Positions 117 to 34,510 of a DNA stretch of 45,929 nt are shown here, piece by piece (position 1 is the first letter of the stretch; every line of letters begins with the position of its first letter). The stretch is from positions 1 through 45,929 of IMG/VR virus record IMGVR_UViG_2894314779_000001. One strand, written 5' to 3'. Position numbers and translations under genes: made by a program. This stretch comes from a virus. A model generated the notes under the pieces. The model was not told the DNA's origin. It ran no database searches and saw only the letters and a program-made list of their open reading frames with translations.

Positions 117-467
117 TTACAAAGTGCGTTCCTGTTTCCGTCCTGCCTTCCAGGTTCGATAGGCATTCAGGGAGTGGATCGCCTGGATGTTTTCGGCATG
201 GGTCACGTGCCGCAAATTCTCCGAGGTATTGTTCAGGCCGTTGCCGTCGCAGTGGTCGATCTCCATGCCATCCTTCTGCCCCATGATGAGCTGGTGCATG
301 TAGACGGTCGCTCCGCGGATTGAGGCACGGGCGTACATCGTCCGTGAGCCATTGGGCTTATGAACTGACCACCGATGCTGCTGAAAGTGATGGGCCACGT
401 CGTCATCAACCAGAGCGTAGAGGTCGGTGGGCTTGCGGTTCTTATAAAGTTGAATTCGCGTCGTCAT
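117..467 (-). CDS. HNH homing-endonuclease-like protein (HNH_3 type), cargo gene between attL and int
   Basis: Motif MEIDHCDGNGLNNTSENLRHVTHAEN. The ATG overlaps the integrase stop codon. Confidence 0.85.
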   Translation of the reverse strand: MTTRIQLYKNRKPTDLYALVDDDVAHHFQQHRWSVHKPNGSRTMYARASIRGATVYMHQLIMGQKDGMEIDHCDGNGLNNTSENLRHVTHAENIQAIHSLNAYRTWKAGRKQERTL

Positions 468-1501
468 GCGCTGGACCGTCCCTGTGCGTTGTGCGCCTCA
501 AGTTTACGTATAGCATTTTCAGCCAGAACGACATCACGGCTCAAGTAATGCCGGTCCAAAATTGAGTGGACATCTTTGACAGTGTGGCCGGTAATCGCCG
601 CAATCTCAAATTCTGTTGCTCCGGCGATAGCAAGTCGCGTGACCGCGGTTCCTCGCAGGTCGTTGAAATGCAGATCCCCAATCCCCGCCTTGGCGCAGGC
701 CTTCCTGAATGACGCCCGGAAACCGTCTGATGTCCAGGGCGTCTTGTCCGAAGAGGTAAGCATGATCGTGCCATGCTTCTTCAAGGAGCCGATTTCCTCG
801 GCAAGGCGCACCCCCACGGGCACGGTCACGCGGGCGCCGGTCTTCCCCTGCTTGAGGCGAAGATACTTCCCATCATAGGCAGACCAGGGTAGGCGCAGCA
901 GGTCGCCCTGGCGCTGCCCCGTCCAAAGCCCAAAAATGACAACCGACATCACCTCTGGAGAGGCGACGGTGAAGAGGCGACGCAGGGTGTCTTCTGTCCA
1001 GATCAGGTCATTCCGATCTGCCTTGTAGAGCCGTCCGCCACGTTCGCAGGGGTTCACCGTGATCCGGCCGCGGTCCTTGGCGACCGAAAGCACCCGAGCC
1101 AGGACCGTCCATGCATAGTCCGCCTTCCGCGGCGTGTCCGCCATGCCGTCCCGCCAAGCCTTGAAGTCGCCGCGGATCTCCGGGGCTGTCAGAGCCTCCA
1201 AGGGGAGGTCCCCGAACTCGGCATCGATCAGGTTCAAATAGGTCTGATAAGCCCGTTTGGAGCTATCCGAGAGGCTTTTGTACTCGCTGCTGCCGCGGAA
1301 CTCCGTCACGAGCTGGTGCAGGGTGCCGTCCGCGGCAATTGTGCGGCCCTTGTGGGCCTCCTGATAACTGGCGAGGAACTCCGAACTCCCCGGCTCTCCG
1401 CGGAGCCGCGGGCCGCCTCGCCAGGCATAGTAATAGATCGTCTTTGTCCCGTCCGCGAGCCGCCGCGGTACCCGGTGTATCCCCTTAAGCATGACGCGCA
1501 T
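464..1501 (-). CDS. int: Tyrosine recombinase / phage integrase
   Basis: C-terminal catalytic region HFNDLRGTAVTRLAIAGATEFEIAAITGH...LDRHYL. I chose the start at internal Met MRVMLKGIHRV (1501), which overlaps the excisionase stop; the 464-1585 ORF extension looks non-coding. Confidence 0.9.
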   Translation of the reverse strand: MRVMLKGIHRVPRRLADGTKTIYYYAWRGGPRLRGEPGSSEFLASYQEAHKGRTIAADGTLHQLVTEFRGSSEYKSLSDSSKRAYQTYLNLIDAEFGDLPLEALTAPEIRGDFKAWRDGMADTPRKADYAWTVLARVLSVAKDRGRITVNPCERGGRLYKADRNDLIWTEDTLRRLFTVASPEVMSVVIFGLWTGQRQGDLLRLPWSAYDGKYLRLKQGKTGARVTVPVGVRLAEEIGSLKKHGTIMLTSSDKTPWTSDGFRASFRKACAKAGIGDLHFNDLRGTAVTRLAIAGATEFEIAAITGHTVKDVHSILDRHYLSRDVVLAENAIRKLEAHNAQGRSSA

Positions 1502-1733
1502 TCCGGTTGGCCCTCCACCGCTCGTAGGCGCTTTGCCCCGCCTCAGAGTCGGATAGGCCGGATAATCTGTCCAGCGCCCGGTCAATGGCCCTCACGTCCC
1601 AGCGGCGCGTGCCGGGGAGGGGGCGGGGGAGCCTGCCCTGGGCCACCCACCGGGAGAAGCCGGACGGGCTGAGGTGGCAGTGCGCCGCCGCTTCCTCACG
1701 GGTCAGCAATCGTGAATGCTCTGCCTGTCCCAT
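1485..1733 (-). CDS. xis: AlpA/excisionase-type helix-turn-helix protein
   Basis: LLTREEAAAHCHLSPSGFSRWVAQGRLPRPLPGTRRWDVRAIDRALD matches the AlpA/Xis HTH pattern. It lies directly upstream of int and overlaps it. Confidence 0.75.
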   Translation of the reverse strand: MGQAEHSRLLTREEAAAHCHLSPSGFSRWVAQGRLPRPLPGTRRWDVRAIDRALDRLSGLSDSEAGQSAYERWRANRNARHA

Positions 1734-6055: not shown

Positions 6056-6715
6056 TCACTGCGCCTTCTTGGTAGGCCAGCCGAGAGAGACCAGCTTCGC
6101 CTTAGCGTGGTCTCGAACCCCGTCGCGGATGCCCTCAGCGAGGCAGGCAAGATCCTTCTGCGTGTCGGCATGAAGCATCAGGTCCGTGACCGCGTTGATG
6201 GTCTTGCACTTGTCGATCTTCTGCTTGAGGGCGGCTTCGATCCCTGCAGGGCTGTCGGGGTCCATCGGCCGATCATTGGCCGGCTGACGCTGTTCCTGCC
6301 CTTGCTCGACGTTGCCGGGGCGCTCTTGCTTGAACTCGTCGGCCTCTTCCTCGGAATAGACATAGCCGTGCAGCTCGATGAGCTTGAGGATCACGCGATC
6401 CTTCGCGCGCTTCTCGGCCATGGCGTAGACGTAGGCTGCCTGCTTGCCTGAGACGCGGTAGTTGACGCCGATCAGCGCCTCGCCGATCGACCACTCGGCA
6501 CGATCCCCCATGCGGCCGGTGACGCGGATTACGGCCTCGTCCCGCCCGGCGCGGATAATGGTCGGCTCGTCGAAGGTGATCTTGGCTTGGGCTGCGATCC
6601 GCTCCAGCGCCTTGTGATAGATCACCGCCGTTCCTTGAACCCGCCAGACGTTTCCAGCCATGGGTTCGCCGAACTTGGCCAGCACCTCGGAGATTTTCTT
6701 GTCGGTGGTGTTCAT
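6056..6715 (-). CDS. Phage protein, possible single-strand annealing/recombination protein (function uncertain)
   Basis: Sits between the Gp157 and NinB-like genes. Has a conserved-looking AYVYAMAEKRAKDRVILKLIELHG block and an acidic stretch SEEEADEF. No firm family assignment by eye. Confidence 0.35.
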   Translation of the reverse strand: MNTTDKKISEVLAKFGEPMAGNVWRVQGTAVIYHKALERIAAQAKITFDEPTIIRAGRDEAVIRVTGRMGDRAEWSIGEALIGVNYRVSGKQAAYVYAMAEKRAKDRVILKLIELHGYVYSEEEADEFKQERPGNVEQGQEQRQPANDRPMDPDSPAGIEAALKQKIDKCKTINAVTDLMLHADTQKDLACLAEGIRDGVRDHAKAKLVSLGWPTKKAQ

Positions 6716-7221
6716 TAGCGGGGGCTCACTCTGAGTGTCTGGGACGGAGCGGATAGGGACGCGCCAGGGACAACCTCGCCCTGCTCAAGAGCTGCCTTGA
6801 TGGCCGCCTTGTCCGGGGTCCGGACGATCTTGCAGAGCTGAGACGGAATGGCCTCCTCGTCCTCAATCACCACGCTGGGACGGGTGCTTGTGAGGGAGGC
6901 GGTCAGATCCGGAGCCTCGATCTTCGGCAACCCAAGGGTCTGCATCGCCTGCTTGACGATGGCGCGGAGGGTCTCGGCTTTGCTCTCGAAACGCTGGCGG
7001 CGCTCCTTCAATTCCGCCTCGATGTCCTTGGCGGCCTTGGCCTGCCCCTCGGCCCAGCGGGCGGCGCGGAGCATTCGGCGCAGCCGTTCCAGAGCATCGC
7101 ATTCGCTCTCGACAAGCTGTTCGAAATCGGGGTCATCCGGCGTGATCCCGGCATCCTTCAGCGCCTGGACGACAAAGGCGGCGGTGGCGATCTCTTGAGA
7201 AAACGTGGCTTGGGCGTTCAC
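6715..7221 (-). CDS. Siphovirus Gp157-family protein
   Basis: C-terminal pattern VVIEDEEAIPSQLCKIVRTPDKAAIKAALEQGEVVPGASL is typical of Gp157. I propose a GTG start at 7221, preceded by GGAG and lying just after the upstream stop at 7226. Confidence 0.65.
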   Translation of the reverse strand: MNAQATFSQEIATAAFVVQALKDAGITPDDPDFEQLVESECDALERLRRMLRAARWAEGQAKAAKDIEAELKERRQRFESKAETLRAIVKQAMQTLGLPKIEAPDLTASLTSTRPSVVIEDEEAIPSQLCKIVRTPDKAAIKAALEQGEVVPGASLSAPSQTLRVSPR

Positions 7222-7998: not shown

Positions 7999-8166
7999 TC
8001 AGCCTCCGATCTTCGAGAAGTAGCGACGGCGCTTGTTGGCAGCCTCGATGGCTTCCTTCGCCCGCTTCTCAATGGCGGCTTTGCGCTGTTCGGGAGTGAG
8101 CTCGACGCGACGGGCGTTCTTCATGTCGCGGATGGCGCCAGAAAAGCCGATGGTGCGCTGGCGCAT
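7999..8166 (-). CDS. Small basic protein (55 aa)
   Basis: Internal Met MRQRTIGFSGAIRDMKNARRVELTPEQRKAAIEKRAK at 8166 overlaps the upstream stop. Confidence 0.5.
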   Translation of the reverse strand: MRQRTIGFSGAIRDMKNARRVELTPEQRKAAIEKRAKEAIEAANKRRRYFSKIGG

Positions 8167-8570
8167 TATGCAGCCTCCGTCGGTGCCGAGCCTGGATAGC
8201 CATTGATAGGCTGCCAACGGTAGCCCTCTGGCATAGGCGAGCGCGTACCGGGATGCTGCCCACCAGCGGCATGAAGAATATCCCGGCAAATAGGTCCGTA
8301 CTTCGGGGTATCCTCTTGCTTGAGGTTCTCCCATTCAGTGACCTCAGCGACCTTTAACATCGCTGCTACGGCCTTCTCTTCGTCCAAGAACCAGCCGTAA
8401 GCACTGTTGAAATTCAGGCCGCTCGGGATGTGAGTAATGACGTACCCATCGCCGCCGTAAGCTTCATGAACAGCAAGAGCCCCGTAGCGATGGCCCGTCA
8501 CCGTCTGAGGCCCCTTATTCGTCATGATCTGAAAAACATCATCTCTGATAAGGGAAAGCTTCCTCGCCAT
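8166..8570 (-). CDS. First gene of the leftward early operon, hypothetical (134 aa)
   Basis: Start at Met MARKLSLIRDDVF (8570), immediately downstream of the OL-type control region. Confidence 0.65.
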   Translation of the reverse strand: MARKLSLIRDDVFQIMTNKGPQTVTGHRYGALAVHEAYGGDGYVITHIPSGLNFNSAYGWFLDEEKAVAAMLKVAEVTEWENLKQEDTPKYGPICRDILHAAGGQHPGTRSPMPEGYRWQPINGYPGSAPTEAA

Positions 8571-8711
8571 CTCACGCCCCCATCCCAATCGAGAGCATGG
8601 CAATGCTCACGGCAAAGATCCCGAGGCAGCAGAGTTCAACGAGGTTGGTGAGGAAGGTGCGGAGGAGGGGCATGTGGGCCATCCATGTGGAAGTGGATGG
8701 ACAAAGTCTGC

Positions 8712-8768
8712 ACGGAAAAATCCGTATGTCAACCTCAAAACGGAAATTTCCTTCCGTTGCATACGGAA
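8712..8768. promoter_or_regulatory. OL-type operator cluster with leftward promoter elements
   Basis: ACGGAAAAATCCGT (8712-8725), ACGGAAATTTCC+TTCCGT (8740-8757) and an ACGGAA half-site (8763-8768). A minus-strand TTGACA (8727-8732) abuts the first dyad. The same motif recurs at 10635-10670. Confidence 0.6.
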
Positions 8769-8885
8769 GAAATGTTTTTGTTTTGTTCCCCGCAATCCAC
8801 AGAGTAGAATAACTCTCAAGTGCCAATCACGACACTTTTCTTAGGCTAAGATCTTAATGACACAGCAAGGCTTGCCGGTTATGCC

Positions 8886-9812
8886 ATGGCCACGATGACC
8901 CAAGCTTACTTTAGTCTGACTTATGACGGGCCAGCTGTCCGTGACGGCGAGATCGACGTCACCGATCTAGCTCCTGCTCTGTTGGCCCTCGGTCAAGCTG
9001 TGAAGGCAACGGGCAAGATCGTGCTTGGTCCTGACGCGGACGTGAGCCTTAAAGTTCGTACGACGAAGACAGGATCATTTGAGGTCCTGATGAGCGCCGT
9101 AACGAACGGTGACGTTGGTCTTGCATGGACCATAATAAAGCAGTTCTACCAAACAGACGACGTACAGACCGCAAAGGCCGTCGTAGAAACTCTCTTGATG
9201 GGAGGAACAGTTGCGGGCGCAGCAACTGCAGGCGTCGTTAAGTTTCTCAAGTGGCGCAAAGGTCGCCCAATAGAAAAGCAGGAAGCGCTACCGAACGGGG
9301 CGGCGAGAGTTACAATTGAGAATGTTGAAATAATTGTTGGCCCTGGTGTTCTTGAAGCTGCGCGCGATCCAATCGTTCGCTCAGGGATCGAAAAGGCTAT
9401 CGCGACCCCTCTCGAGAAGGACGGCATCGATATTGTTAAGTTCTCCAGCGAGGCAAGTGAGCAAGTAGTAGTTGATAAGTCGGAGCGCGTTCATTTCTTG
9501 AGCGCGGAAGCTTCTGAGTCTGAATTCACCTCTATTTACAACAAGGTGTTTTCGATAGTTACGTTGTCGTTTAAAGCGGGCAACAAATGGAAGCTTCATG
9601 ACGGGCAAGGTGCTCGAAACGTCACAATTTTGGACGAGGACTTCTTAGATCGTATCGACACGGGAGTTGCTCGCTTCGCAAAGGGAGATCTCTTGGTATG
9701 CCAAGTGAGAGAGACTGCCGTTCGCACAGACGGAGGCTTCAAATCTCAGTACGAGATCCTGAAGGTCATAGAGCACCGACCTTATAGGCCCCCAGAAACG
9801 CTCAGGCTGTGA
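8886..9812 (+). CDS. Orphan 308-aa protein of unknown function, AT-rich, converging on the repressor gene
   Basis: Long ORF with clear A/T-ending codon bias, unlike its neighbours. I recognise no family. Central hydrophobic stretch LLMGGTVAGAATAGVVKFL. Confidence 0.8.
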   Translation: MATMTQAYFSLTYDGPAVRDGEIDVTDLAPALLALGQAVKATGKIVLGPDADVSLKVRTTKTGSFEVLMSAVTNGDVGLAWTIIKQFYQTDDVQTAKAVVETLLMGGTVAGAATAGVVKFLKWRKGRPIEKQEALPNGAARVTIENVEIIVGPGVLEAARDPIVRSGIEKAIATPLEKDGIDIVKFSSEASEQVVVDKSERVHFLSAEASESEFTSIYNKVFSIVTLSFKAGNKWKLHDGQGARNVTILDEDFLDRIDTGVARFAKGDLLVCQVRETAVRTDGGFKSQYEILKVIEHRPYRPPETLRL

Positions 9813-9820
9813 GAAGGTAA

Positions 9821-10597
9821 CTAAAGCCTCGTTACTTTGCAGACGACGCGGCCGATTACCTGCAGATCCTCGGCAAGAATTTCATCGGTTCCATGTGCCG
9901 GGTTGTCCGACTTAATTCGTATCTTGACCGGATTGCTGCCCTTCACGACCTCTAGCCGCTTCACCGCTATTCCGATGCCATCGAAGATGGCGAACAGGCC
10001 GTCAGGAGAGGGTGCCGTCTGAGCACGGTTGATCATGACTCGATCCCCCGGCAGCAAAGTCGGTATCATCGAATCACCGTCGACTGGGATGAAGTCGACT
10101 TCTGCCTCTCGGGCTCGCAGCTCGGTGTGCAAATAGTCGACCGGCAGCCGCCACACCGCCCGCACTCCATCCAGAACCTTCCCATCGACCATCACGCCAG
10201 GCGCGAGGCCGCCCTCGCCAAGCCCCGCTACAACATTCCGTTCCGGCACCTCTCCCGGCTTCAAGTCTCCCCGCTGGATGCGGATTTCCACCGCATGGGC
10301 CGTGCGATCCTCGATGAACTCCGGATCCGGCTCGAACTCCTCGCCAACCGGAACCCTGCGGATAGTGTCCTCTTCCCCAATTTCAAACTTGAACAGCGAT
10401 CCCGGCTTCAAAGCGAACTCCTCCTCGAGCGCCGTCACCTCGGCAGCTCCTAGGGATTTTTTACGCCCCTTAAGGAAGTCGCGAAGGTAGTCCGGCCCGC
10501 GGCCAATCTTCCTCGCCAAATTGGTCGGATCGATCCCCCTTGAGTCAATCAGGGCGGAAAGGTTGGCTCGGAGTCGTTCAGGGCTGTGTGGTCGCAT
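9821..10597 (-). CDS. CI-type prophage repressor (XRE-like HTH plus S24/LexA-type autopeptidase domain)
   Basis: N-terminal LSALIDSRGIDPTNLARKIGRGPDYLRDFLKGRKK (HTH). C-terminal VDGDSMIPTLLPGDRVMIN ... GIAVKRL (Ser/Lys dyad). Start chosen at MRPHSPERL so that the operators stay intergenic. Confidence 0.85.
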   Translation of the reverse strand: MRPHSPERLRANLSALIDSRGIDPTNLARKIGRGPDYLRDFLKGRKKSLGAAEVTALEEEFALKPGSLFKFEIGEEDTIRRVPVGEEFEPDPEFIEDRTAHAVEIRIQRGDLKPGEVPERNVVAGLGEGGLAPGVMVDGKVLDGVRAVWRLPVDYLHTELRAREAEVDFIPVDGDSMIPTLLPGDRVMINRAQTAPSPDGLFAIFDGIGIAVKRLEVVKGSNPVKIRIKSDNPAHGTDEILAEDLQVIGRVVCKVTRL

Positions 10598-10610
10598 AGG
10601 CGGAATTATC

Positions 10611-10677
10611 CGCTTTTCCGAAAAGCGTGGCGATACGGAAATTTCCCGTTGCATGTACGGAATTTTCCGTTCATATT
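10611..10677. promoter_or_regulatory. OR-type control region: operators plus a rightward promoter
   Basis: 17-bp palindrome CGCTTTTC-C-GAAAAGCG (10611-10627). Dyads ACGGAAATTTCCCGT (10635-10649) and ACGGAATTTTCCGT (10657-10670). TTGCAT (10649-10654), 17-nt spacer, CATATT (10672-10677), 6 nt before the ATG at 10684. Confidence 0.6.
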
Positions 10678-10683
10678 GTCCGC

Positions 10684-10938
10684 ATGGAAGAGACACTTCG
10701 CGCCCACCTTTTTGAATGCGCCGCCTTGTTCGAGGAGGCCACGGGGGTCACGCCCGCAACCCTCGGAAAGCGCGCGCTCAACGACAACACGTTCTTTGCC
10801 CGGATCTCAGAAGGGCAGGGATTTACGGTCAGAACTTTTGACCGCGTGATGGAATGGCTCTCTGCCAACTGGCCGGAAGGCGCTGAATGGCCCTCTGATG
10901 TTCCGCGTCCGGCGCCCTCCCAGAGCGAGGCCGCCTGA
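10684..10938 (+). CDS. Cro-position small regulator (84 aa)
   Basis: Divergent from the repressor. Contains GVTPATLGKRALNDNTFFARISEGQGFTVRTF, which is HTH-like. Start at MEETLRAHL; the longer track ORF would run through the operators. Confidence 0.7.
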   Translation: MEETLRAHLFECAALFEEATGVTPATLGKRALNDNTFFARISEGQGFTVRTFDRVMEWLSANWPEGAEWPSDVPRPAPSQSEAA

Positions 10939-27928: not shown

Positions 27929-28146
27929 TTGAGGCTCCCAAGAATGGCCCTTGCCAGGAGATGTAAGACGACGCTGATGATTATGCAAATCACGCCGCTG
28001 ATAGAGGTTCCCAGCAACGAGGTCGCTGGCGAGCCATTGAGGGCGGAGATCATAGGGGCTAACCCGCCAACAGCAACCACGGCAATGGCAACACCATTCA
28101 GGTAAGTGGCTGAGAGCTTTGCTCTTTCGTTATGGATAAGGCTCAT
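27925..28146 (-). CDS. Small two-pass membrane protein (73 aa)
   Basis: Hydrophobic spans VAIAVVAVGGLAPMISAL and GVICIIISVVLHLLARAIL. ATGA overlap with the RHH gene stop. Confidence 0.65.
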   Translation of the reverse strand: MSLIHNERAKLSATYLNGVAIAVVAVGGLAPMISALNGSPATSLLGTSISGVICIIISVVLHLLARAILGSLK

Positions 28147-28466
28147 TCTTCGCCTTCAGAGGAGGGGGAGGGCTTGATGTCCCGTTTCTTGGTAGACGCC
28201 GGGGCAGCCTGGAAGAGTTCAAGCGCCTCTCGGATTTCCGCTAAGGTCTCTTGGTTGCGGTCGATTTGGTCAATGGCGACTTGGAGAAGGGCCTCCTTCG
28301 ACATTCTCGATAGGATATCGAACCTTTGCTCTTTGTCGAAGCTACGCTCCAGGCGCGCTAATATCTCGGCCGTCATAGAACGCCTGTTGGCTTCGGCGGC
28401 CTTCTCGACCTTGGCGCGAAGCTCTTCTGGGAAGCGCAGGCGGAAATGAGGATCTTCTCTCGACAT
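28143..28466 (-). CDS. Arc/Mnt-type ribbon-helix-helix repressor (107 aa)
   Basis: PHFRLRFPEELRAKVEKAAEANRRSMTAEILARLERSF matches the Arc-like DNA-binding domain. Start at MSREDPHF (28466). Confidence 0.75.
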   Translation of the reverse strand: MSREDPHFRLRFPEELRAKVEKAAEANRRSMTAEILARLERSFDKEQRFDILSRMSKEALLQVAIDQIDRNQETLAEIREALELFQAAPASTKKRDIKPSPSSEGEE

Positions 28467-28530
28467 GCCACACCTATGGCCAAAAAATCGTTTGACGTCG
28501 ATGCCACACGGTTGTACAAAGTAATGGCCA
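28465..28530. promoter_or_regulatory. Divergent control region of the two RHH genes, with repeated motifs
   Basis: ATGCCACAC at 28465-28473 and 28501-28509. ATGGCCA at 28476-28482 and 28524-28530. TTGACG (28492-28497), 17-nt spacer, TACAAA (28515-28520) facing the plus-strand gene. Confidence 0.45.
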
Positions 28531-28552
28531 TTGATTGGACAAGGAGATGTAT

Positions 28553-28774
28553 ATGGCGCGTGGCGACCCGCACATGAGGGTTCGCATCCCTCAAGATCTG
28601 AGAGAGCGGCTTCGGGCATCGGCCCAGACGAATTTTCGGACAATGAACGCTGAACTGGTGTTTCAGCTAGATCGCTCCCTGCCCCGGCAGGGGGAGAAGA
28701 ACGATGACGGGGTGAAGTTTGGCGACCGAGCCCCGTCATCGTCGCAATCGGCGCCGGTTACCAGCCGGGCCTAA
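28553..28774 (+). CDS. Arc-type ribbon-helix-helix repressor (73 aa)
   Basis: PHMRVRIPQDLRERLRASAQTNFRTMNAELVFQLDRSL. The ATG at 28553 follows AAGGAG; the track ORF starts at an upstream TTG. Confidence 0.75.
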   Translation: MARGDPHMRVRIPQDLRERLRASAQTNFRTMNAELVFQLDRSLPRQGEKNDDGVKFGDRAPSSSQSAPVTSRA

Positions 28775-30317: not shown

Positions 30318-30347
30318 AAAGGGCGCTCTATGGGGTGCCCTTTTTCT
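30318..30347. terminator. Bidirectional intrinsic terminator between convergent genes
   Basis: AAAGGGC ... GCCCTTT stem (30318-30324 and 30337-30343) is flanked by an A-run and TTTTTCTC. It overlaps the last codons of the minus-strand gene. Confidence 0.55.
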
Positions 30348-30717
30348 CAACCCAGCCACGGGCCACACTTCCCTCCGGCCCGTACTTCGTCAGCAATTCA
30401 TAGCAGGCGCGTGGCTTGTTCGGTTTGTTTGGTTGTGAGTCAAGCTCAATGTAACGATTGATCCACTTGGAACGCGAAACGTCGTTCTCGACTATAAATC
30501 TGCCCTTCTGTGAGAAATCGAAGTCATCTGCACATAATTCGATGAGGAATGCTGCGTAAGCTACATGTTCAATTAAATCTCTGTCGCGTTTTTCTTTTGC
30601 CTCTATTTGCTCAGCTTCAGACTTATACCGCTGAATTTCGCTCTGACTGGACGCCGGAAGCGCGAAAAGCAGGCTGGAAATACATAGTAAGGCGGATCTG
30701 TTCACAGGATACCTCAT
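30328..30717 (-). CDS. Small secreted protein with a Sec signal peptide (129 aa), very AT-rich
   Basis: MRYPVNRSALLCISSLLFALPASSQSE signal sequence. Its start codon overlaps the tape measure start on the other strand. Confidence 0.7.
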   Translation of the reverse strand: MRYPVNRSALLCISSLLFALPASSQSEIQRYKSEAEQIEAKEKRDRDLIEHVAYAAFLIELCADDFDFSQKGRFIVENDVSRSKWINRYIELDSQPNKPNKPRACYELLTKYGPEGSVARGWVEKKGTP

Positions 30718-33045: not shown

Positions 33046-33582
33046 GTGCCGATCTCCGCAACGCAAGCCTGGGCCGAGGCAGCCGCTTCCGCGCCCAAGG
33101 ATGAGGTCATGCTCGTCACCATCGAGCTGATCCATCCGGTCTTTGTCGAGAACGGGCAGCCGGCTCCGATCAGGGCGGTGAGGAACACGGTGGACATGAA
33201 CTTCCGGCTTGAGGCCGGGGCGCCGGTGGGCGGCGGGACGGTCGTACTCTTCAAGGCCATCCCTTTCGACATCGACTACCCCCGCATTGGCAGCCTCGGA
33301 GCAGAGGCCACCATCCGGCTCGACAACGTGAACCGGGAGACCTCCCGCTATCTCCACGAGGCGGTGAAGATGAACACGCCCATCCAGGCGATCTTCCGGG
33401 GCTATCTGGCTTCCGACCCCAACACAGTCGGGCAGGGGCCCTACAAGCTGATCCTGCGCTCTGTGAAGCGCAAGGGCAGCATTCTTGAGGGGCAGCTTGC
33501 CATTGCCCGCCCCCAGAACATGCGCGTTATGCGCGAGGTCTACGACATGGTTCGGTTCCCGTCATTGCTGCAGGCGTCGTGA
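33046..33582 (+). CDS. DUF1833-type minor tail protein (lambda gpL position)
   Basis: MLVTIELIHPVF ... FKAIPFDIDYPRIG ... ATIRLDNVNRETSRYL fits DUF1833. GTG start. Confidence 0.7.
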   Translation: MPISATQAWAEAAASAPKDEVMLVTIELIHPVFVENGQPAPIRAVRNTVDMNFRLEAGAPVGGGTVVLFKAIPFDIDYPRIGSLGAEATIRLDNVNRETSRYLHEAVKMNTPIQAIFRGYLASDPNTVGQGPYKLILRSVKRKGSILEGQLAIARPQNMRVMREVYDMVRFPSLLQAS

Positions 33583-33998
33583 TGGATCGTCTCGCCTTCT
33601 ATGAGAGCCTGATCGGCAAGCCCTACAGGATCGGGGCGAACGGCGAAGATGGTTCTTTCGATTGTTATGGGCTGGCCCAATATATCCAACGAGAGCTAGC
33701 GGGCGTTCAATTGCCAGATGTGGACGCGCGGCCAGCAACAACACGGCAGCAAGCAGAAGCCCTCCTTGATCATCCGGAGCGCAATAATTGGGTTCAGATA
33801 GAAGAGCCAGAAGACTTGTGCTTAGTATTAATGGGGAATGTAGCCAAGAGAGATTTTCATCTTGGGACATATGTAGTACCATCAACAGTAGGTGGAGTGC
33901 TTCATATTAGCAAAGAGGCTGGTGTTGTATTTGATGATATGCCCGCACTCAAAGCCTCTGGCTGGAACTACATGAAGTTTTACAAGAGGGTCTCGTGA
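33582..33998 (+). CDS. NlpC/P60-family tail peptidase (lambda gpK / GTA g14 analogue)
   Basis: GKPYRIGANGEDGSFDCYGLAQYI (catalytic Cys context) ... DFHLGTYV (His). Noticeably AT-richer than the neighbouring tail genes. Confidence 0.75.
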   Translation: MDRLAFYESLIGKPYRIGANGEDGSFDCYGLAQYIQRELAGVQLPDVDARPATTRQQAEALLDHPERNNWVQIEEPEDLCLVLMGNVAKRDFHLGTYVVPSTVGGVLHISKEAGVVFDDMPALKASGWNYMKFYKRVS

Positions 33999-34510
33999 AC
34001 CATCGGGGCGAGAATGTATCTGCCATCACGGCCGATCTCTTGCGGTCGGAGTTTCACTACGACCCTGAAACTGGAATATTCACCAACCGGGTCTTGCGCC
34101 GATCCGCCAAGCCCGGCGACAGGGCTGGCACTATGAAGCCGAATGGATATCGGCGCATCGGTATCCAGAAGCGCTATTACTATGAGCATCGCCTCGCATG
34201 GCTCTATATGACCGGATCGTGGCCAGACGGCGAGATTGATCATGCCAATGGCGATCCATCGGATAATCGCTGGTGTAATCTTCGTCAGGCTACACGCTCA
34301 CAGCAGGGTGCCAATCGCCCTATTCAGAAGAATAACACTACTGGGTTAAAGGGCGTCCAGTGGCACAAGGTGCGCAAGCGTTGGATGGCCTCTATCAGCG
34401 TCAACAAGAAGGCGATCTGCCTCGGCTTCTTTGATACTCGCGAAGCTGCCTACGAAGCCTACTGCACGGCGTCAGATAAATTCTACGGGCCTTACGCCAG
34501 AGTCGCATAA
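33995..34510 (+). CDS. HNH (HNH_3) plus AP2-domain homing endonuclease inserted in the tail module
   Basis: YEHRLAWLYMTGSWPDGEIDHANGDPSDNRWCNLRQAT, then GLKGVQWHKVRKRWMASISVNKKAICLGFFDTREAAYEAY (AP2-like). GTG start overlaps the upstream stop. AT-rich. Confidence 0.85.
   Translation: MNHRGENVSAITADLLRSEFHYDPETGIFTNRVLRRSAKPGDRAGTMKPNGYRRIGIQKRYYYEHRLAWLYMTGSWPDGEIDHANGDPSDNRWCNLRQATRSQQGANRPIQKNNTTGLKGVQWHKVRKRWMASISVNKKAICLGFFDTREAAYEAYCTASDKFYGPYARVA

Follow-up and report, generated by a model that had tools for sequence, protein, structure and literature searches.

In phage lambda, the slot beside the cI repressor gene is occupied by rexAB, which is co-transcribed with cI and encodes a two-protein exclusion system whose RexB component is a polytopic membrane channel. 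Exclusion proteins of the Sie2009/Ltp type are small, and a membrane helix at the N-terminus or a lipobox anchors them. The abortive-infection protein BstA of prophage BTP1 is about 307 aa in length and has two predicted domains with a KilA-N-like N-terminus; bstA genes lie downstream of cI in prophages of alpha-, beta- and gamma-proteobacteria, and a short DNA element overlapping the 5' end of the gene, aba, gives self-immunity (Owen et al. 2021, PMC8585504). In addition, 145 phage defence candidates (PDCs), unassayed by their proposers, have been nominated because their members sit inside BREX, DISARM or type I restriction-modification (RM) systems, and PDC-S42 is single gene no. 42 among them (Payne et al. 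2024, bioRxiv 10.1101/2024.01.29.577857).

The window analysed here is a whole stretch of viral DNA of 45,929 nt (IMG/VR record IMGVR_UViG_2894314779_000001). It carries, in a 1-kb cassette (8810-9820) within the immunity region, a gene which we read as horizontally acquired single-gene cargo of a lambdoid prophage, most likely an anti-phage factor; we put the probability of this reading at roughly 0.55. The ORF, which a preliminary description had placed at 8886-9812 on the plus strand with 308 aa, was found exactly there. Translation may actually begin at the ATG at 8895, which would give a protein of 305 aa beginning MTQ, as the homologs do; these begin MTQ or MS., and residues 1-3 are unconserved. 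When the gene was compared with its 91%-identical homolog in another prophage, L180, the identities at codon positions 1, 2 and 3 were 92.9, 96.4 and 47.9%, respectively. Since identity is distributed in this way, and since the family comprises 5,733 clusters (at 50% identity) whose members are nearly all about 300 aa in size, we concluded from sequence comparison that this is a real gene under strong purifying selection and not a chance ORF.

The preliminary description had recognised no family for the protein and had called it an orphan, and both statements proved to be wrong. Three libraries match it over its full length: the PADLOC profile PDLC05015 of PDC-S42 (E=1.8e-82, residues 4-299 against positions 1-291 of the 302 in the profile), which is the sole PADLOC family matching at E<=1; phrog_3243 (PHROG 3243; E=1.8e-64); and NCBIfam NF053583, LAPAL_fam (240.6 bits against a cutoff of 60, E=2.2e-71), whose expected LAPAL motif is found as L28-A-P-A-L32. 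On the strength of these profile matches, PDC-S42, PHROG 3243 and NF053583 are one protein family. One search returned 45 homologs, and the other returned the clusters mentioned above, which put the family at about 5,700. A Pfam search with the protein gave no family match. Among 44 family members, 15 showed weak hits to Pfam DUF7946 that cover its first half and score under the gathering cutoff. A literature search for PDC-S42, the LAPAL motif, DUF7946, phrog_3243, NF053583 or WP_000338655 (the E. coli homolog described below) returned nothing, and no experimental phenotype, anti-phage included, was found in the literature for any family member. Every source labels the members 'hypothetical', and PADLOC lists the family as a candidate only.

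The slot in which the gene lies is bounded on the right by the gene of a CI/LexA-type repressor (9821-10696, minus strand) with an HTH and a Peptidase_S24 domain (Pfam PF00717, E=6.4e-12; phrog_4, E=5e-21). The true start of the repressor is probably at 10597, giving 258 aa, since the longer reading frame runs into the OR operators; the neighbouring repressor gene in L180 is also called at 258 aa. The left boundary is an OL operator block (8705-8809) that has repeat family D2 and the inverted repeats I4, I20 and I21 in common with OR. Its operators lie at about 8712-8725, 8740-8757 and 8763-8776, with a TTGACA on the minus strand at 8728-8733. The OL-type operators which had been noticed beside the gene are real, as the operator palindrome ACGGAAWWTTCCGT found at 8712-8776 occurs again at 10635-10670 in the OR region (10598-10683; operator copies at 10635-10646 and 10657-10668). 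OR lies between the repressor and the gene in the cro position, ORF 10627-10938, of which residues 20-102 are matched by phrog_7669.

Four sibling prophages, L089 to L092, encode repressors 87-90% identical in amino acid sequence and have the same OL, with approximately 68-90% nucleotide identity over the block and invariant columns in the alignment of the relatives, and they lack the gene. Because they hold other cargo between the repressor stop codon and OL, the insert could be delimited to 8810-9820; DNA homology to the window resumes exactly at 9821 in three of them (L090-L092) and at 9830 in L089. The alternative cargo genes gave no match to a PADLOC family. A survey of this slot in related prophages, as proposed in the preliminary description, has accordingly revealed a variable cargo hotspot from which the gene is missing in 4 of 6 siblings. 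The gene is also missing from about 98% of the E. coli prophages with a common cI region (see below) and is not a core gene of all relatives. Its composition, described earlier as richer in A/T than that of the flanking phage genes, including the codon endings, bears this description out. GC is 0.48-0.53 over 8600-9800 compared with 0.60-0.66 in the flanks, across the whole window GC is lowest in the 9-10 kb block (0.516, the mean being 0.616), and the GC3 of the gene is 0.54 compared with 0.65-0.88 in neighbouring genes. These low values indicate a foreign origin.

The same kind of slot is used in E. coli. In lambdoid prophages of this species a homolog, WP_000338655.1 (hhalign probability 100%, E=2e-60), follows cI at a distance of 74 bp and in the same orientation, in the order cI, homolog, kil-gam-bet-exo, which supports the earlier view that the slot is the rexAB position. 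The homolog is present in 34 of the 2,238 E. coli genomes sharing that cI region; in the others the slot either contains nothing or is taken by ASCH, DUF6932 or further hypothetical genes. Two further loci, L143 and L146, have a homolog inside a type I RM operon, in the order hsdM-homolog-hsdS-hsdR with a 4-nt overlap of start and stop codons (hsdM MTase_I, E=3.6e-207; hsdS, E=6e-72; hsdR, E=4e-164). The embedding in RM on which PDCs were nominated is reproduced for this family in these two loci, and the window copy lies outside any RM system.

Among 51 non-redundant viral loci, the HTH+S24 repressor is the sole recurrent neighbour of the family: it lies within three genes in 17 of them, and in 11 of these 17 it is directly upstream and co-directional. 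This adjacency is not universal, being seen in 17/45 viral clusters and in 2/71 genomic clusters (within 3 kb). No recurrent partner gene besides repressors was found in the 51 viral and 71 genomic non-redundant loci, and the window protein appears, from these neighbourhoods, to act as a single gene without an obligate partner. In the 71 genomic loci the immediate neighbours are for the most part housekeeping genes or genes without annotation, with a few RM or MADS genes, so enrichment in classical defence islands is weak. Other homologs lie at prophage ends by tRNA or host genes, in an IS1595 islet, as a solitary copy beside an Mrr-like gene and, in one case, between a DarA-like gene and tail genes that are on the opposite strand. 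These varied contexts fit mobile cargo. Where the gene lies along viral contigs gave no information.

The gene might alternatively be lysogenic-conversion cargo that serves host fitness (stress tolerance, envelope or nucleic-acid metabolism) at moron positions merely tolerant of insertion. Typical moron traits, namely low GC, an orientation of its own and location at prophage ends and module junctions, agree with this explanation, as do the predominance of non-defence genes among the genomic neighbours and the lack of a defence phenotype found for the family. We nevertheless regard it as unlikely. Members share overlapping start and stop codons with type I RM operons; the slot is the rexAB site of lambda and in other prophages commonly holds exclusion or abortive-infection genes such as bstA; and the hosts, which include E. 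coli, Enterobacter, Burkholderia, Listeria, Lactobacillus and Bifidobacterium, range from 34% to 71% GC with Gram-positives among them, so that a universal target such as phage fits better than a host-specific trait.

NCBIfam names NF053583, at equivalog level, 'LAPAL motif-containing putative phage structural protein', and some members do lie by tail or virion-morphogenesis genes (Phage_tail_S in 3/48 viral and 2/133 genomic neighbours). A role in phage structure or morphogenesis is, however, strongly disfavoured and in our judgement highly improbable, since the genomic context contradicts the label. The window gene stands alone within the immunity region, and the terminase is 8 kb away; siblings with the same immunity region lack it; members near tail genes occupy the end of the prophage and are encoded on the strand opposite to those genes; and others reside in RM operons or as a solitary chromosomal gene. 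Among 50,697 phage records a member occurs in just three, all of them temperate and always in the lysogeny/integrase region (Lactobacillus phage A2, Listeria phage vB_LmoS_188 and Bifidobacterium phage PMBT6, where it adjoins the integrase gene), and no virulent phage among these records has one. Published virion proteomics of phage BH1 gave no information on ORF19 of A2. Structural likeness to virion proteins was likewise absent from the Foldseek PDB and BFVD searches. The gene is a real, selected, non-structural and mobile single-gene unit whose recurrent settings are beside repressors, at the edges of prophages and within type I RM operons.

At its 3' end, the gene and the repressor gene converge, and the two stop codons are separated by 8 bp (9813-9820). 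As the preliminary description had said, no terminator intervenes: the scan detected none, and the folding of the junction was like that of shuffled sequences (z=-0.2 on the plus and -0.1 on the minus strand). A 'terminator-like' hairpin at 8751-8769 was considered as the terminator of the gene and rejected, because it is operator DNA common with OR and kept in relatives. The convergent layout is kept in one other prophage only, L180; most family members linked to a repressor run in the same direction as it, unlike the window gene.

At the 5' end lies a cassette-specific leader (8810-8885, plus strand) with a non-coding core at 8826-8880 that is constrained in comparison with L180. Of its 55 nt, 54 are identical, versus approximately 48% at synonymous sites (P<=7e-8 even at 70% neutral identity), and the core holds two 5-1-5 palindromes, CTTAG-G-CTAAG and GCAAG-G-CTTGC. 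The leader is missing from prophages without the gene, and its motif was not found upstream of more distant homologs. A recombination patch is unlikely to be the source of this conservation, since adjacent synonymous sites are 65-75% identical compared with 98% for the leader. An RNA element was rejected, the fold z being about 0 on both strands with no Rfam match. A putative sigma-70-like promoter, TTGTTC-N16-TAGAAT, was read by eye at the OL/cassette junction (8783-8810, plus strand); its 8/12 matches are below the threshold of the promoter scan. The -35-like block is invariant in 6/6 related prophages, and a TAnnAT -10-like hexamer (TAGAAT or TAAGAT) is present only in the two related prophages carrying the gene. 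Transcription might start from this promoter of the gene's own, pass through the constrained leader and converge on the repressor transcript.

Such an arrangement could also belong to an accessory modulator acting on the choice that the prophage itself makes between lysis and lysogeny, either as an OB-fold ssDNA binder tuning the RecA*-dependent cleavage of the S24 repressor or through convergent transcription tuning cI. The terminator-free convergence kept in L180, the constrained leader, the recurrence of the family beside S24/HTH repressors and the resemblance of its OB-fold (described below) to SSB and RPA would all suit a modulator. Against it, the gene is dispensable, as shown by its absence from the 4 of 6 siblings with the same repressor and operators and from most E. 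coli prophages that have one cI region in common; many members lie a long way from any repressor, as the two S24 genes within 3 kb among 71 genomic clusters illustrate; and some members are inside type I RM operons or solitary among housekeeping genes. We consider this role unlikely.

The AlphaFold (AF2) model of the protein has a pLDDT of 86. The N-terminal 'LAPAL' domain (residues 1-73; 8886-9104, plus strand; pLDDT 81-94) is predicted to consist of a strand, a long helix and a beta hairpin, and the helix carries D24-V-x-D-L28-A-P-A-L32, in which L28, A29, P30, A31 and L32 are conserved at 92-98% across 194 members. It is followed, at residues ~95-127 (9168-9266, plus strand), by a Gly/Ala-rich hydrophobic segment and then a basic KW(L/R)KGR cluster, both kept in nearly all of 44 aligned members. 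The 19-residue Kyte-Doolittle maximum of this segment is 1.1-2.35 across members, which is borderline for a membrane helix. In the window protein it is the sole hydrophobic segment and is internal (residues 95-121, KD19 1.53). The AF2 model does not build it as one long helix, and confidence is low just N-terminal to it (residues 70-100, pLDDT 58-77). An N-terminal signal, transmembrane helix or lipoprotein signature is absent, the N-terminus being polar (MTQAYFSLTYDG...).

If the hydrophobic segment were a latent membrane-active and toxic one, with the leader as its control, the gene could be a selfish stabilisation or toxin-like element retaining its mobile carrier. The conservation of the segment and the basic cluster, the tight constraint on the leader and the occurrence of the family on diverse mobile elements are compatible with this, but there is no recurrent cognate antitoxin or partner gene, the Pfam and PADLOC searches gave no match to a toxin family, and the hydropathy is borderline only. 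We regard such an element as very unlikely.

The C-terminal region (residues ~205-300; 9498-9785, plus strand) is predicted to form an OB-fold-like beta barrel (domain model pLDDT 88.1). DSSP of the domain model gives E-E-E-H-E-E, that is, five strands with a helix inserted after the third. The conserved residues are F229, K234, W235, K/R236, D239, G240, D250, F253, F264, K266, D268 and H297, all of which except G240 and F264 may cluster in a putative ligand site. The top 50 PDB structural matches of this domain are almost all OB-fold nucleic-acid binders, and they are weak (best E=9e-3, TM 0.5-0.6, 10-19% identity). Remote homology and structure searches had been suggested earlier; the profile libraries yielded the family, and Foldseek against PDB, with the full length and with the C-terminal domain, yielded nothing at E<=1e-3. 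Sequence and profile/HMM searches against PDB chains gave noise only and no OB-family relationship. The structural matches indicate likeness at the level of the fold only. The BFVD structure search matched uncharacterised phage proteins alone, and the window protein has no recognisable catalytic motif.

Returning to the anti-phage role that we prefer, the gene would shield the lysogen from other phages by superinfection exclusion or abortive infection. The barrel would bind a ligand that comes from the phage, as its fold and conservation suggest, with single-stranded nucleic acid or a replication intermediate as the most plausible choice, and the LAPAL domain and Gly-rich hydrophobic segment might, speculatively, deliver the block through oligomerisation or membrane association. 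The preliminary proposal of an exclusion or defence gene is supported in part, by the variable slot, the rexAB position, the PADLOC PDC-S42 nomination and the type I RM embedding. Its 'orphan' status has fallen, and expression in the lysogen and coupling to CI levels by convergent transcription are putative parts of it. A bolder version is that the LAPAL/PDC-S42 family is a new widespread class of single-protein prophage defence, in which an SSB-like barrel senses ssDNA or replication intermediates of incoming phage, the LAPAL domain and hydrophobic segment trigger an abortive or exclusion response, and the leader core at 8826-8880 is a cis-acting control or aba-like self-immunity element that spares the resident prophage on induction; we give this idea little credence at present.

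The context added here consists of the replacement of rexAB in the E. coli cI slot, the interchangeable cargo in two unrelated host groups and the type I RM embedding. Because these are three independent lines, and because the E. coli homolog suits standard coliphage panels, the gene is a strong and easily assayed candidate. If it is active, a common prophage defence whose OB-fold-based architecture does not look enzymatic would be added to those known, and the NCBIfam product name, which misleads, would be corrected; if it is inactive, the family would be a frequent moron without an assigned role.

Compared with the known systems, the locus shares with RexAB the slot between the 3' end of cI and OL/PL, where the E. 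coli homolog takes the rexAB position, and presumably the logic of prophage cargo linked to the immunity region. The slot is all that is shared: the window has one gene instead of two, it encodes no polytopic membrane protein and has no sequence match to RexAB, and it converges on the repressor gene, whereas rexAB is co-transcribed with cI. BstA resembles the window protein in being a single two-domain protein of similar length encoded by the cI repressor, and the 55-nt leader superficially recalls aba; the leader is, however, without the sequence features described for aba, and in place of the KilA-N-like N-terminus of BstA (no Pfam KilA-N match at E<=1, and no BstA match among the PADLOC families hit at that cutoff) the window protein has the predicted LAPAL domain and OB-like barrel. 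As with Sie2009/Ltp-type proteins, Gram-positive family members sit in the lysogeny module by the integrase gene, but the window protein has only the borderline internal hydrophobic segment instead of an N-terminal signal. With the OB-fold ssDNA/RNA binders (SSB/Rim1, RPA, CST, ExoVII XseA and the LysRS anticodon-binding domain), the modelled barrel shares a b1-b2-b3-helix-b4-b5 topology, and its conserved aromatic and basic residues would fit nucleic-acid binding, although the structural similarity is weak and there is no sequence-level relationship. From PDC-S42/phrog_3243/LAPAL_fam the window protein shows no family-level difference, having the same length, the same architecture and the LAPAL motif at 28-32, and the gene is best regarded as an experimental lead within a known large candidate family rather than as a new kind of system.

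The whole window is a lambdoid prophage. It begins with an integrase (464-1585, minus strand) and leftward early genes (among them an HNH and a Gam-like gene), which are followed by the gene of interest (8886-9812, plus strand), then by the repressor, a cro-position gene and a CII-like gene, then by a RusA-like gene, a methyltransferase and DnaB, and finally by terminase, portal, major capsid and a J-like tail protein. The 308-aa ORF is present as the preliminary description had it, and the claim that it is rich in A/T also holds: the GC content is 0.48-0.53 across 8600-9800 and 0.60-0.66 on both flanks, so that the gene lies in the window's deepest GC trough. Averaged over the 9-10 kb block, GC is 0.516 (window mean 0.616), and GC3 is 0.54 in the gene compared with 0.65-0.88 in the neighbouring genes. 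Between the gene and its closest homolog (P0001, 91% amino acid identity, encoded on the prophage contig L180), identity at codon positions 1, 2 and 3 is 92.9, 96.4 and 47.9%, respectively, a pattern that indicates strong purifying selection; the ORF is a real gene under selection. The adjoining repressor shows the same pattern against L180 (92, 97 and 50%), so the gene and the repressor diverged together as a unit. Elsewhere in the window, four low-GC or low-GC3 ORFs (28143-28739 and 30328-30717, minus strand; 33579-33998 and 33995-34510, plus strand; GC 0.48-0.56, GC3 0.49-0.63) occur inside the tail genes or in the gaps between them, in part on the other strand, and may be additional morons.

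The gene had been regarded as an orphan in which no family could be recognised. This was incorrect, as three curated libraries match the protein over its full length: PADLOC PDLC05015 'PDC-S42' (E=1.8e-82), the function-unknown family PHROG 3243 (E=1.8e-64) and NCBIfam NF053583 'LAPAL motif-containing putative phage structural protein' (240.6 bits, cutoff 60). The family to which the gene belongs (PDC-S42 / LAPAL_fam / phrog_3243) had thus been catalogued before. No Pfam family exists for the protein, and the N-terminal ~90 residues of some members reach DUF7946 below threshold only. Homologs numbered 45 in a word-indexed search; when 1.84 billion cluster representatives were searched with a profile, 5,733 matched at E<=1e-3, of which 1,988 reached E<=1e-30. 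The best 150 of the 5,733 are 281-354 aa long, each with a single full-length match. All public sources name these proteins 'hypothetical'. PDC-S42 belongs to a set of 145 'phage defence candidates' whose nomination rested on guilt-by-embedding, the surrounding systems being BREX, DISARM or type I RM (Payne et al. 2024, bioRxiv 10.1101/2024.01.29.577857). A literature search found no mention of PDC-S42, the LAPAL motif, DUF7946, phrog_3243, NF053583 or the E. coli homolog WP_000338655.1.

We compared the window with four sibling viral contigs (L089-L092), which have repressors 87-90% identical to that of the window and share its cro-position gene. None of the four encodes the 308-aa protein, as judged by tblastn. 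Sibling-window DNA homology spans the OL operator block (8705-8809) and restarts with the repressor stop codon, at 9821 (in L089, at 9830), so the window-specific insert is 8810-9820, comprising a 76-nt leader, the ORF and an 8-nt trailer. The alternative cargo consists of a 117-aa and a 280-aa gene in L089, a 127-aa gene pointing the same way as the repressor in L090, and, in L091 (5895-6395) and L092 (5896-6396), a 166-aa lipoprotein-like gene (MITKI...VLASAC) directly downstream of the repressor, together with small membrane proteins; none of these genes matches a PADLOC family. Judging by its position, the 166-aa protein is a candidate Ltp/Sie-like exclusion lipoprotein. L180 carries the same cassette as the window in the same convergent orientation, 12 bp off its S24 repressor, and is collinear with window positions 8705-10919 at 79.7% nucleotide identity.

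Left of 8705, L180 diverges from the window (43% identity). The first leftward gene past OL (8166-8603, minus strand, 145 aa, GC 0.56) probably starts at the ATG of MARKLS..., about 12 codons into the listed ORF; it has no match in Pfam, PADLOC or NCBIfam, an insignificant one in PHROG (E=0.38) and no tblastn match in the four siblings. On both counts, the left side of OL (8166-8704) looks like a second variable slot.

The E. coli protein WP_000338655.1 (313 aa) is also a family member (hhalign against the family alignment, probability 100%, E=2e-60). It is found in 34 of 5,426 complete E. coli genomes, chromosomal every time. In the two lambdoid prophages examined, its gene comes after the S24 cI repressor, in the same orientation and at a distance of 74 bp, and is followed by kil, gam, bet and exo, and in one of the two by xis and int as well. 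This is the position of rexAB in lambda, and the adjacency to cI bears out the rexAB-slot analogy of the preliminary description. When cI, the homolog and the downstream flank were used together as query, 2,238 genomes matched at 80-100% identity, with the homolog covered in only 34; in the remaining genomes the slot is empty or holds an ASCH-domain protein, a DUF6932 protein or other hypothetical genes. The variants seen between cI and kil were an ASCH-domain gene with a hypothetical gene, a DUF6932 gene with a hypothetical gene, three hypothetical genes, and an empty slot. The E. coli cI-kil slot is a rich, unexplored cargo hotspot. The predicted variability of the locus was thus found in two unrelated host groups, the siblings L089-L092 and E. 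coli.

The gene is mobile, non-structural and swappable with other cargo in an immunity-region hotspot of two host groups. We consider it a horizontally acquired single-gene prophage cargo, most likely protecting the lysogen from other phages, and give this reading a probability of about 0.55; the gene product would then have an anti-phage role.

The family is carried by three of 50,697 phage records, Lactobacillus phage A2, Listeria phage vB_LmoS_188 and Bifidobacterium phage PMBT6, all of which are temperate, and the gene adjoins the integrase or lysogeny module in each. In IMG/VR it occurs in 103 contigs with host GC of 34-71%. Across 51 non-redundant viral loci, an HTH+S24 repressor is the sole recurrent neighbour (within three genes in 17, of which 11 have it immediately upstream in the same orientation), and no partner gene recurs; therefore, the family gene behaves as a single-gene unit. 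That such a unit is a selfish stabilisation element seems to us very improbable.

At least 308 species-representative genomes carry the family as well. The closest among the genome matches listed are Hyphomicrobiales MAGs (57-58% identity), which suggests an alphaproteobacterial host for the window. Repressor adjacency is rare among these closer, genomic relatives (2 of 71 clusters). Some members lie at prophage ends, by host genes or tRNA 3' ends, and some are inserted among housekeeping genes; one lies in an IS1595 islet, one solitary member adjoins an Mrr-like gene, and one is flanked by a DarA-like polyvalent protein and by tail genes, and is encoded on the opposite strand. At the loci L094/L181 and L093/L005, tRNA 3' ends (GGTTCGATTCC...CCA) lie ~100-170 nt upstream of the homolog, which is thus the first gene by the tRNA attachment site. 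The NCBIfam label 'phage structural protein' is at odds with all genomic contexts examined and was rejected; this product name may spread misleading annotation. It is exceedingly improbable that the gene encodes a virion protein.

Family members are also embedded in type I RM operons, namely in Limnobacter olei (L143, 3488-10399) and Nitrosomonas oligotropha (L146, 716-7627). The order in both is hsdM - homolog - hsdS - hsdR, with the homolog start overlapping the hsdM stop by 4 nt, and these copies directly reproduce the embedding signal behind the PDC nomination. Few of the 133 immediate neighbours in genomes are known defence genes; defence-island enrichment of the classical kind is therefore weak. 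A fitness factor unrelated to defence is an unlikely alternative to the protective cargo that we favour.

The repressor (HTH + Peptidase_S24; 9821-10696, minus strand) was identified by Pfam PF00717 (E=6e-12) and phrog_4 (E=5e-21). Because the listed 291-aa ORF overlaps the OR operators (10598-10683) and the L180 counterpart is called at 258 aa, translation probably begins at M34 (10597); for the cro-position gene (phrog_7669), a start near 10684 is more probable than one at 10627. The OL-type operators were confirmed by the palindrome ACGGAAWWTTCCGT at 8712-8776, which recurs at 10635-10670, between the repressor and the cro-position gene. The stop codons of the gene and the repressor are 8 bp apart in convergent orientation, and the junction is terminator-free as first described: a consensus scan found none, and the fold z-scores on the two strands (-0.2 and -0.1) are no better than those of shuffled sequence. 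The sole 'terminator-like' hairpin near the gene (8751-8769) is operator DNA and was rejected as a terminator.

In L090-L092, a hairpin rich in GC (AGCCCGGC...GCCGGGCT), with a T-run on the repressor strand, lies directly ahead of OL, approximately at 6290-6330, 7130-7170 and 6920-6960, respectively (columns 140-185 of A3, an alignment of six related prophages). It is likely the terminator of a repressor-cargo operon in the siblings whose cargo is co-oriented with the repressor. The hairpin is missing from the window and L180, so that in the window the leftward repressor transcript could run antisense through the gene and the gene's transcript could enter the repressor gene. Convergent transcription, as proposed earlier, is plausible from this arrangement. 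The convergent layout is a peculiarity of this lineage; elsewhere, most repressor-linked members are transcribed in the same direction as the repressor.

At the right edge of OL, the block TTGTTCCCCGCAATCCACAG is near-invariant across all six related prophages, and a TAnnAT hexamer 16 nt past TTGTTC is present only in the two gene carriers (TAGAAT in the window, TAAGAT in L180). A putative rightward promoter at 8783-8810, assigned by eye and under the promoter scan threshold, is plausible, and CI could repress or activate it because the rightmost operator abuts the -35 element. The non-coding leader core upstream of the gene (8826-8880) is identical to that of L180 at 54 of 55 nt, in contrast to ~48-50% identity at synonymous sites of the flanking genes (P<=7e-8, even with neutral identity taken as 70%). 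It contains two 5-1-5 palindromes (CTTAG-G-CTAAG and GCAAG-G-CTTGC), gave neither an RNA folding signal nor an Rfam match, and has no counterpart upstream of more distant homologs. On the simplest reading, the leader core may be a DNA-level control element or operator; together, promoter and leader would govern expression of the gene. A gene so close to the repressor might modulate the prophage's own switch, but this is unlikely, because the gene is dispensable in the sibling prophages and many family contexts are repressor-free.

An AlphaFold2 model built from a 44-sequence alignment was confident (mean pLDDT 86.1, pTM 0.68). It consists of an N-terminal strand-helix-hairpin domain (residues 1-73) with an invariant D-L-A-P-A-L motif on a long helix, a helical stretch of lower confidence (70-100), a hydrophobic segment rich in Gly and Ala (about 95-121) with a basic KW(L/R)KGR cluster after it, a mixed alpha/beta middle domain (131-204) and a C-terminal barrel (205-300). 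The hydrophobic segment keeps its character in nearly all members (maximum KD19 1.1-2.35, borderline for a membrane helix) and may have a role of its own. The whole protein matched no PDB structure at E<=1e-3, and in a viral structure library it matched only uncharacterised proteins. When the C-terminal domain was modelled by itself (pLDDT 88.1, topology b-b-b-helix-b-b), it matched almost solely OB-fold nucleic-acid-binding domains (Rim1/SSB, RPA, CST and telomerase OBs, ExoVII XseA, LysRS/AsnRS anticodon-binding domains and PolC), although weakly (best E=9e-3, TM 0.5-0.6). The model supports the OB fold class but not homology to OB families. Among 194 members, conserved polar and aromatic residues cluster in the barrel (F229, K234, W235, K/R236, D239, G240, D250, F253, F264, K266, D268 and H297); further conserved positions are R165 and E200 (middle domain) and D24 with the LAPAL helix (N-terminal domain). 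No catalytic motif is recognisable in the protein. The aromatic and basic cluster on the predicted barrel would fit nucleic-acid or ligand binding, and the OB-like barrel may bind either.

The value of these results is that context evidence converges on a very large candidate family with an E. coli representative in the rexAB slot, which makes the family cheap to test. Lambda rexAB is defence/exclusion cargo beside a prophage repressor. BstA is another such cargo (PMC8585504). The gene described here is a member of neither: it differs from RexAB in being one gene with no polytopic membrane partner, and from BstA in that no KilA-N domain was found in its product. What it has in common with both is that it, too, is cargo beside a prophage repressor.
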